Source of the DNA: Antedon mediterranea
Lineage: Eukaryota; Animalia; Echinodermata
Direction: 5' to 3'
Length of the DNA stretch: 64,000 nt
NCBI RefSeq assembly: GCF_964355755.1
Contig: NC_092677.1
Coordinates: 28,445,175-28,509,174 of the forward strand
The notes under the pieces are model-generated. The model worked only from the letters and a program-made list of their open reading frames with translations, did no database searches and was not told the DNA's origin. Positions 19,601-30,917 of the stretch are shown here, one piece after another. The position numbers were made by a program, and so were the translations under genes. Within the stretch, counting starts at the first letter, position 1. Each line of letters begins with the position of its first letter.

Positions 19601-22600
19601 TAATTGATTAAATATAGGAATCAAGTCTAGGAATACATTGATACCTTTACAAACAAATAATAATATAGGTATGTGAACAGTTTTATTTTTTATTTAAAGG
19701 ATGTAGAGAAATGGGAAACAAATCGAATGATCACCAGTGGTGTTGTACATCGTGTTCAATATGATGAAGATTTTGAAGAAGAAAATGTTAACAAGGTCCA
19801 CCTCCTTGTACATAACATAGTACCTCCATTCTTAGATGGCAGAATTGTATTTACTAAGCAACCTGAACCAGTTGTACCACTTAAGGTAAGTAATGTATCC
19901 TATTTGTACAACAATTGATATTAAACAATAGTTCATACAGAGCTATATTGTTGTACCTTTTTAATCGTTTTATTGCCATTTCTATTTGTTATGTATTAAT
20001 GTACAGTACTTACAACGTTTTTAGCCATGCGGCTACTTGTAATCTTTTTATACCTGAATAAATAAATAAAAAAAAAAAATAACATAATACTTGTTTAGTA
20101 GTTGGTATTTATTAAGAATTGTTTGCTATTTACATAACAATAGGATGGAACATCTGATATGGCTGTGATTTCTAGGAAAGGGTCAATGGCAGTAAGAAAA
20201 CACAGAGAACAAAAAGAACGTAAAAAGGCCCAGCACAAAGACTGGGAGCTGGCTGGAACTAAACTAGGTAACATAATGGGTATTAAGAAAACCCAAGAAC
20301 AAGATAAAGAAGGTGATGTGGATTACAAAACTAATCAAAAGTTTGCTGAACATATGAAAGACAAAACAGAGGCAGCAAGTGACTTTGCTAAACATAAATC
20401 ACTGCGTCAACAACGGGAATATTTACCCATATTTGCTGTTAGACAAGAGCTTTTGAATATTATACGCGATAACAATGTTGTCATAATAGTTGGTGAAACA
20501 GGCTCTGGCAAAACCACACAATTAACTCAGGTGTGTAAACATTTATAATGTATTTAATTTTTGCTAGACATAATACCAAGATCAGGTAATTTAACTGATG
20601 CTTGCACCTTGAAAATAAGACTAAATACTATAATTACTTTTGTTAGTACCTACATGAGGATGGACATGGTAGATATGGGATGCTTGCACCTTGAAAATAA
20701 GACTAAATACTATAATTACTTTGTTAGTACCTACATGAGGATGGACATGGTAGATATGGGATGCTTGCACCTTGAAAATAAGCCTAAATACTATAATTAC
20801 TTTGTTAGTACCTACATGAGGATGGACATGGTAGATATGGGATACTTGCACCTTGAAAATAAGCCTAAATACTATAATTACTTTTGTTAGTACCTACATG
20901 AGGATGGACATGGTAGATATGGGATGCTTGCACCTTGAAAATAAGACTAAATACTATAATTACTTTGTTAGTACCTACATGAGGATGGACATGGTAGATA
21001 TGGGATACTTGCACCTTGAAAATAAGCCTAAATACTATAATTACTTTTGTTAGTACCTACATGAGGATGGACATGGTAGATATGGGATGCTTGCACCTTG
21101 AAAATAAGACTAAATACTATAATTACTTTGTTAGTACCTACATGAGGATGGACATGGTAGATATGGGATGCTTGCACCTTGAAAATAAGCCTAAATACTA
21201 TAATTACTTTTGTTAGTACCTACATGAGGATGGACATGGTAGATATGGGATGCTTGCACCTTGAAAATAAGACTAAATACTATAATTACTTTGTTAGTAC
21301 CTACATGAGGATGGACATGGTAGATATGGGATGCTTGCACCTTGAAAATAAGACTAAATACTATAATTACTTTTGTTAGTACCTACATGAGGATGGACAT
21401 GGTAGATATGGGATGCTTGCACCTTGAAAATAAGACTAAATACTATAATTACTTTTGTTAGTACCTACATGAGGATGGACATGGTAGATATGGGATGCTT
21501 GCACCTTGAAAATAAGACTAAATACTATAATTACTTTTGTTAGTACCTACATGAGGATGGACATGGTAGATATGGGATGCTTGCACCTTGAAAATAAGAC
21601 TAAATACTATAATTACTTTTGTTAGTACCTACATGAGGATGGACATGGTAGATATGGGATGCTTGCACCTTGAAAATAAGACTAAATACTATAATTACTT
21701 TGTTAGTACCTACATGAGGATGGACATGGTAGATATGGGATGCTTGCACCTTGAAAATAAGACTAAATACTATAATTACTTTGTTAGTACCTACATGAGG
21801 ATGGACATGGTAGATATGGGATGCTTGCACCTTGACAATAAGACTAAATACTATAATTACTTTGTTAGTACCTACATGAGGATGGACATGGTAGATATGG
21901 GATGCTTGCACCTTGACAATAAGACTAAATACTATAATTACTTTGTTAGTACCTACATGAGGATGGACATGGTAGATATGGGATGCTTGCACCTTGACAA
22001 TAAGACTAAATACTATAATTACTTTTGTTAGTACCTACATGAGGATGGATATAGTAGATATGGGATGCTTGCACCTTGACAATAAGACTAAATACTATAA
22101 TTACTTTTGTTAGTACCTACATGAGGATGGATATAGTAGATATGGGATGCTTGCACCTTGAAAATAAGACTAAATACTATAATTACTTTTGTTAGTACCT
22201 ACATGAGGATGGACATGGTAGATATGGGATGCTTGCACCTTGACAATAAGACTAAATACTATAATTACTTTTGTTAGTACCTACATGAGGATGGACATGG
22301 TAGATATGGGATGCTTGCACCTTGAAAATAAGACTAAATACTATAATTACTTTGTTAGTACCTACATGAGGATGGACATGGTAGATATGGGATGCTTGCA
22401 CCTTGAAAATAAGACTAAATACTATAATTACTTTTGTTAGTACCTACATGAGGATGGATATAGTAGATATGGGATGCTTGCACCTTGAAAATAAGACTAA
22501 ATACTATAATTACTTTTGTTAGTACCTACATGAGGATGGACATGGTAGATATGGGATGCTTGCACCTTGAAAATAAGACTAAATACTATAATTACTTTTG

Positions 22601-30917: not shown

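Follow-up and report, generated by a model that had tools for sequence, protein, structure and literature searches.

Tandem arrays over splice junctions of a crinoid DHX38 gene share the anatomy of amphioxus mirage minisatellites

The amphioxus gene Adh3 reportedly carries a mirage minisatellite, from work by Canestro et al. in 2002. Such minisatellites are also described, in the available text of two reports, in the amphioxus globin genes BflGb6 and BflGb9 (PMC3087553) and in troponin C and PGBD5 (PMC3902484), with regular splicing undisturbed in both reports. In human F7, a 37-bp VNTR in intron 7 presents 5–9 identical donors, and according to the accessible part of a minigene study the most upstream one alone is used (PMC1557585). 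Among the matches listed in the literature searched, subscription journals lying outside its scope, we found neither a report of a mirage in a crinoid nor a genome-wide test for mirages.

Here, we analyzed a 64-kb stretch of the genome of the crinoid Antedon mediterranea (in the following called the window), about 35% of which consists of tandem arrays. An exon at 20147-20530 is 100% identical to the A. mediterranea PRP16-like protein P0002 and identifies the gene as DHX38. Five arrays lie on its exon–intron junctions and another one on a donor of the TOP1 gene. The initial annotation recognized no described equivalent at this density; however, the amphioxus mirages and F7 intron 7 share the anatomy. 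We consider these arrays, with a probability of roughly 0.78, to be minisatellites of the mirage type that were seeded on microhomology, amplified like other minisatellites of a repeat-prone genome and tolerated through cross-exon pairing of splice sites.

Anatomy of the junction-spanning arrays

The arrays were located with TRF and the copies of the splice motifs were counted separately (Table 1); both agree with the places and counts initially given for the five DHX38 arrays. Isoform X1 maps onto the window exactly and as a single solution with all its exons. In this spliced mapping, the protein uses the last acceptor copy of arrays 1, 2, 3 and 5 and the first donor copy of array 4, and compared with other animal orthologues it is gap-free over all five array junctions in 8 of 8 cases. 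The earlier statement that the outermost copy alone gives the conserved protein is borne out by this mapping but does not amount to separate evidence, because any duplication across a junction has this consequence by geometry. In RefSeq isoform X2 (P0002, 989 aa), splicing to an alternative acceptor at 29367 (within 29238-29435) leads to a frameshift and a truncated helicase; this has no relation to the arrays.

Table 1 Positions and composition of the DHX38 coding span and of the junction-spanning arrays in the window.
Feature	Position	Strand	Unit or content	TRF (period × copies)	Splice motifs counted	Real site	Decoys
DHX38/PRP16 coding span	13649..30914	+	22 coding exons; RefSeq isoform X1 (P0121, 1219 aa)				
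Array 1	20597..22968	+	81/82-bp unit: intron end and first ~36 nt of exon	82 bp × 29	29 acceptors	Exon start 22933	28 acceptors
Array 2	23672..24033	+	91-bp unit	91 bp × 4	4 acceptors	Acceptor 24021	3 acceptors (23750, 23841, 23930)
Array 3	24393..25843	+	96-120-bp units: exon start, fold-back inverted copy and intron end	~120 bp	11 acceptors	Acceptor 25794	10 acceptors; 2 units without acceptor
Array 4	25917..26305	+	64-bp unit	64 bp × 6.1	6 donors	Donor after 25949	5 donors (26013-26269)
Array 5	26752..28821	+	43-bp unit; rearranged junction	43 bp × 48	47 decoys and 1 real acceptor	Acceptor 28800	47 AGs
TOP1 donor array	46022..46217	+	56-bp unit	46032-46217, 56 bp × 3.3		Modelled donor after 46042	3 GTs

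As in mirages, the unit spans the exon–intron boundary, with an intact junction in arrays 1–4 and TOP1 and an altered true AG in array 5, and the splice dinucleotides are repeated along each array. The unit lengths do not keep the reading frame. The inner units evolve in concert to the exclusion of the boundary unit, as can be seen from shared changes in arrays 1, 3 and 5. Two substitutions are common to 25 of the 28 decoys of array 1 and absent from the real exon, all ten decoy acceptors of array 3 carry a C where the real one carries a T, and the 47 decoys of array 5 all differ from the real copy. The common decoy variant of array 1 (20647-22851) also contains, 22 nt past the acceptor, a donor-like ATG/GTAGAT that is not present in the real exon.

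The real site of array 5 reads ...ctttttag/GCAGTGTTATCG (the slash marks the junction), whereas the decoys read ...ctttgtgttcag/TTATCG. Their AG is equivalent to nt 2-4 of the exon, and they do not carry the AG of the true junction. Hence the description of array 5 as an amplified acceptor junction holds for its 43-bp unit with 47 decoys but not for the true AG. In array 3, an inverted hairpin loop is present in 5 of 12 units. Its decoy units are predicted to form more stable folds than the real exon start does (-38.2 and -33.0 versus -21.5 kcal/mol at 20 C), and the exon part of the decoys could be hidden in this way.

The TOP1 array was likewise found where it had been noted and spans a donor, but its unit is partly foreign: a copy of ~23 bp of the local junction is joined to a 33-bp core common to an intronic TMEM231 array at 59889-61021. 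The latter has a 64-bp unit and lies 14 kb from the TOP1 array, the core in common being 33-35 bp long. The last copy appears to be the native donor of TOP1, and the modelled first donor is a chimera with the inserted core. Among the other arrays of the window, those at 53916-55089 and 57918-58244 in TMEM231 intron 1 form one family of ~70-76 bp, and a 92/93-bp intergenic array (31255-37499) encloses a 605-codon reverse-transcriptase-like ORF at 34703-36517, LINE-like by eye.

We looked for the arrays in sequencing data by placing short-read contigs of four runs on two stretches of the window. One DNA run (X1) possibly derives from the sample used for the assembly; run X5 comes from a different sample and study. 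Run X1 holds the repeat junctions, with a unit depth of 924 versus 26 in array 1 and of 1304 versus 30 in array 5. Relative to single-copy sequence, its depth is ~35, 12 and 44 at arrays 1, 3 and 5, which as a rough guide compares with 29, 12 and 48 assembled copies, and ~2x at arrays 2 and 4 on the contigs listed. The contigs of X5 cover repeat-junction sequence at all five arrays. This confirmed that the arrays are real. An assembly artefact as their source is extremely improbable: copy numbers rest on the assembly and on short reads, and depth in run X1 reaches just the twofold level at two arrays, but repeat junctions occur in contigs from two samples, depth ratios come near the assembled counts at the three other arrays, and the units contain structured variants.

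Seeding, turnover and position of the arrays

The edges of three arrays share short overlaps, GATG in array 1, TTGCA in array 4 and TTTACAC in array 5; no such overlap was found at the edges of array 2. This junction anatomy suggests that the seeds of arrays 1, 4 and 5 arose by plain duplication on overlaps of 4-7 nt. The seed of array 3 may have been a reverse-complement copy, with a hairpin of the exon itself as primer and a near-match return to the intron, and the core of the TOP1 seed was probably copied from another array. In a second step, the inner units would have been amplified and homogenized, possibly by unequal exchange or slippage, while the functional end copy was spared. The pattern behind this step is that inner units are homogeneous and the functional terminal copy stands apart in arrays 1, 3 and 5.

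A close relative (organism B; runs X6 and X7), about 96% alike, showed several states of these arrays. At array 1, one continuous contig contains upstream intron sequence and a single acceptor, at array 2 there is a single unit and at array 4 a single donor (X7). Array 3 is probably present as a two-copy seed, since one of its repeat junctions is bridged by a 135-nt contig of single-copy depth and the depth of a 40-nt piece is roughly doubled. Array 5 is multi-copy and carries the same altered decoy. The initially suggested comparison with related species thus had a mixed outcome, with three arrays single, one a probable seed and one shared. Organism B also has a private tandem array of ~54 bp, at a depth of ~5-7x single-copy, in the middle of the intron at 23586-23619, where the window is single-copy. 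From these presence and absence states together with the private array, we conclude that arrays come and go fast, both on and off junctions, the comparison giving no polarity between gain and loss. The copy-number variation seen consists of presence or absence between species, as contigs collapse arrays. Intron gain by tandem duplication was considered and rejected, since organism B has an array-free intron at the same junction for arrays 1, 2 and 4; existing introns were therefore lengthened.

The initial annotation had proposed a recurrent process amplifying junctions. We addressed the position of arrays using TRF arrays with a period of at least 20 inside the coding spans of DHX38, copine, TOP1 and TMEM231. 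The exonic 51-bp x1.9 repeat at 16851-16947, rows of shorter period or low score, and intergenic and UTR arrays were omitted. Each array was collapsed to one unit, which is approximate, and the exons of copine and TMEM231 were annotated by hand. Junctions are spanned by 6 of 19 genic arrays with at least three copies, compared with 2.5-3.9 expected under four nulls (P 0.025-0.16), and 13 of 19 lie off junctions. Adding two-copy arrays yields 6 of 21 versus 2.75-4.2 expected (P 0.04-0.23). DHX38 alone, a gene chosen for the pattern, has 5 of 7 arrays on junctions versus 1.9 expected (P 0.013), and copine, TOP1 and TMEM231 together have 1 of 12, also versus 1.9. Collapsed introns mostly measure 80-350 nt, and seeds of 64-120 bp meet a junction by chance in 29-50% of cases. 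In units away from junctions, AG/GT was present in 5 of 14 versus 1.7 after shuffling (P 0.019, post hoc); the arrays concerned are located at 4167-7871, 17472-18474, 41611-42652, 43468-43656 and 31255-34705. The copine array presents 45 strong-looking acceptors without a junction origin.

These counts bear on the possibility that breaks, R-loops or recombination at exon edges seed or amplify repeats there. We regard such a junction-biased process as unlikely. The counts for DHX38 and for the four genes speak for some bias, to this extent against our preferred reading, as does the AG/GT excess, and 3 of 5 arrays are not found in organism B, pointing to independent gains (or losses) in a short time. 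However, DHX38 was selected because of the pattern, the three other genes fall below expectation, the private array of organism B lies mid-intron, and short introns make chance overlap frequent. Targeting of junctions is not supported, and the earlier proposal of junction-aimed amplification finds no support in the neighboring genes or in the mid-intron array; the window fits no bias or a modest one.

Splice-site choice between real sites and decoys

Run X5 is known as spliced from its contigs, none of the runs listed being recorded as RNA. In its contig 11 (1342 nt), which is spliced GT..AG, the upstream exon continues directly at 22933, the last acceptor of array 1. The same contig skips 23533-24020 (joint 23532-24021, GT..AG), thereby using the last acceptor of array 2, and stops 28 nt into the exon start common to the array 3 copies. 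At contig level, the RNA uses the true site at arrays 1 and 2, in agreement with the earlier view that the arrays are tolerated; the arrays are also recurrent and recent. These spliced contigs, all from one run, bear on these two arrays, and none of the contigs listed is spliced at arrays 4 and 5; contigs drop rare forms, and low decoy use is invisible in them. The gaps in X5 cover at 25865-25905 and 26521-26766 are no evidence either way, as some records were filtered.

We scored the splice sites with a matrix trained on the other introns of the window. Decoys reach the score of the real site in array 1 (up to 2.2 versus 2.2) and array 2 (5.7 versus 5.7), the decoy donors of array 4 equal the real donor, and decoys score below the real site in array 3 (6.3-6.8 versus 7.8) and array 5 (at most 8.7 versus 10.6). 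The first decoys would rebuild introns of 116, 217, 311 and 57 nt (57-217 nt at arrays 1, 2 and 5). In short human introns, the 3′ site lying upstream is preferred, according to the available text of a study of such choices (PMC9225289), and the puzzle that the initial annotation had seen under intron definition is a fair one. Its second argument, first-AG scanning, is inapplicable, since 3′ sites at least 20 nt apart each have a polypyrimidine tract and a branch point of their own (PMC9225289 section 9, as far as accessible). Under exon definition, sites nearest to each other over the exon are favored, according to the same accessible text (PMC9225289). This cross-exon proximity rule predicts the last acceptor and the first donor.

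If used, each of the 49 decoys of arrays 1–4 and TOP1 would introduce an early stop that lies over 50 nt upstream of the last junction. Steady-state RNA therefore cannot tell site choice from nonsense-mediated decay (NMD) at these arrays. At array 5, 15 of 47 decoys are in frame without a stop, so NMD cannot cover them. Decoys might be used appreciably under intron definition, with NMD removing the products and the arrays lowering or tuning DHX38 output. This is an improbable reading in our judgment. It would fit the NMD-type stops and the short introns that the first decoys rebuild at equal splice-site score, but along 28+3+10+5+47 serial decoys even modest use would presumably cost much of an essential transcript, the 15 stop-free decoys escape NMD, and the in-frame pseudo-sites of F7 are likewise unused in the accessible part of that study (PMC1557585).

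It is very improbable that the arrays are selected regulatory elements, e.g., for autoregulation by PRP16 proofreading or for recursive splicing. DHX38 encodes a spliceosomal helicase, and array 5 and probably the array 3 seed are common to organism B; yet arrays 1, 2 and 4 are missing from this ~96% alike relative, TOP1 has such an array too, and the units are out of frame. Furthermore, no decoy acceptor regenerates a GT: directly after it, all decoy acceptors have TAC, ATA, AGC/ATC/AGT or TTA. Recursive splicing, brought up in the initial annotation, was rejected on this ground, as the decoys cannot serve as ratchet points. An autoregulatory role of PRP16 was rejected because the arrays are not conserved; the suggested link to PRP16 proofreading found no evidence, the protein being ordinary at the junctions and a similar array being present in TOP1.

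The most likely explanation of tolerance would combine cross-exon choice, NMD as back-up and survivor bias. Splicing would go to the outermost site, with contig-level support at arrays 1 and 2. The rule behind it, which we infer from human work, may be the pairing of the nearest sites across the exon together with enhancers in the unduplicated exon part. NMD would probably act as a back-up where decoy use gives early stops. Moreover, arrays harming the essential DHX38 gene may have been removed, so that the remaining ones look tolerant. Against this explanation, the rebuilt introns of arrays 1, 2 and 5 favor the upstream acceptor in human data, and the choice from the exon side is thus not predicted by intron length alone. 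In addition, its splicing rules are taken from human genes and the RNA represents one contig run and 2 of 5 arrays.

A wider proposal would be that in crinoids, and perhaps in other repeat-prone invertebrates, exon edges are the preferred seeding places of tandem duplications and site choice is strictly cross-exon despite a perfect intron of 57-116 nt being offered first. We consider this doubtful, with low odds. If true, thousands of arrays would amount to a natural experiment, across the whole genome, on how 3′ splice sites are chosen, with birth stages dated by relatives. The arrays would matter more with a genome-wide junction bias, which the window does not show.

Comparison with described systems

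In the accessible text on SD-MMEJ and templated insertions, hairpin-primed synthesis is followed by microhomology annealing (PMC5728401). Hairpin priming resembles the presumed seed of array 3, and the short overlaps resemble arrays 1, 4 and 5. SD-MMEJ is known from small repair junctions at induced breaks; here, the likeness is drawn from sequence alone and amplification comes in addition. The cross-exon proximity rule, in the available text (PMC9225289), concerns exons with long flanking introns, whereas here the first decoy offers a short intron and most neighboring introns are short.

Array 4 and the TOP1 array match the accessible description of F7 intron 7 in that the first unit spans the donor. 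F7 represents the donor side only; here there are four acceptor-side arrays, with the choice read at two of them. Because the F7 work covers donors, acceptor arrays add to it. Identical rival acceptors in a gene with short introns provide a test bed for intron versus exon definition and NMD outside vertebrates. Such arrays can also mislead gene models and read mapping.

The closest correspondence is with the amphioxus mirages. As far as the available text of those reports goes, they have the same tandem unit over the exon–intron boundary, at donors as well as acceptors and with the splice dinucleotides repeated, the same homogenized inner units with spared boundary units, and possibly several arrays per gene (two in PGBD5). 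They differ in that the host here is a crinoid instead of a cephalochordate, that five arrays lie within 8 kb, and that copies number up to 29 and 48, compared with 2-7 in the globin and PGBD5 mirages according to main-text figures. A fold-back unit (array 3) and a unit with a foreign core (TOP1) are present here as well, and a close relative shows absent, probable seed and shared states together. Mirage minisatellites are thereby extended to a crinoid, with states (absent, probable seed, amplified) dated via this relative. What is new is the crinoid case, the high density and copy number and the intermediate states of the relative, while the anatomy itself is that already published for amphioxus.
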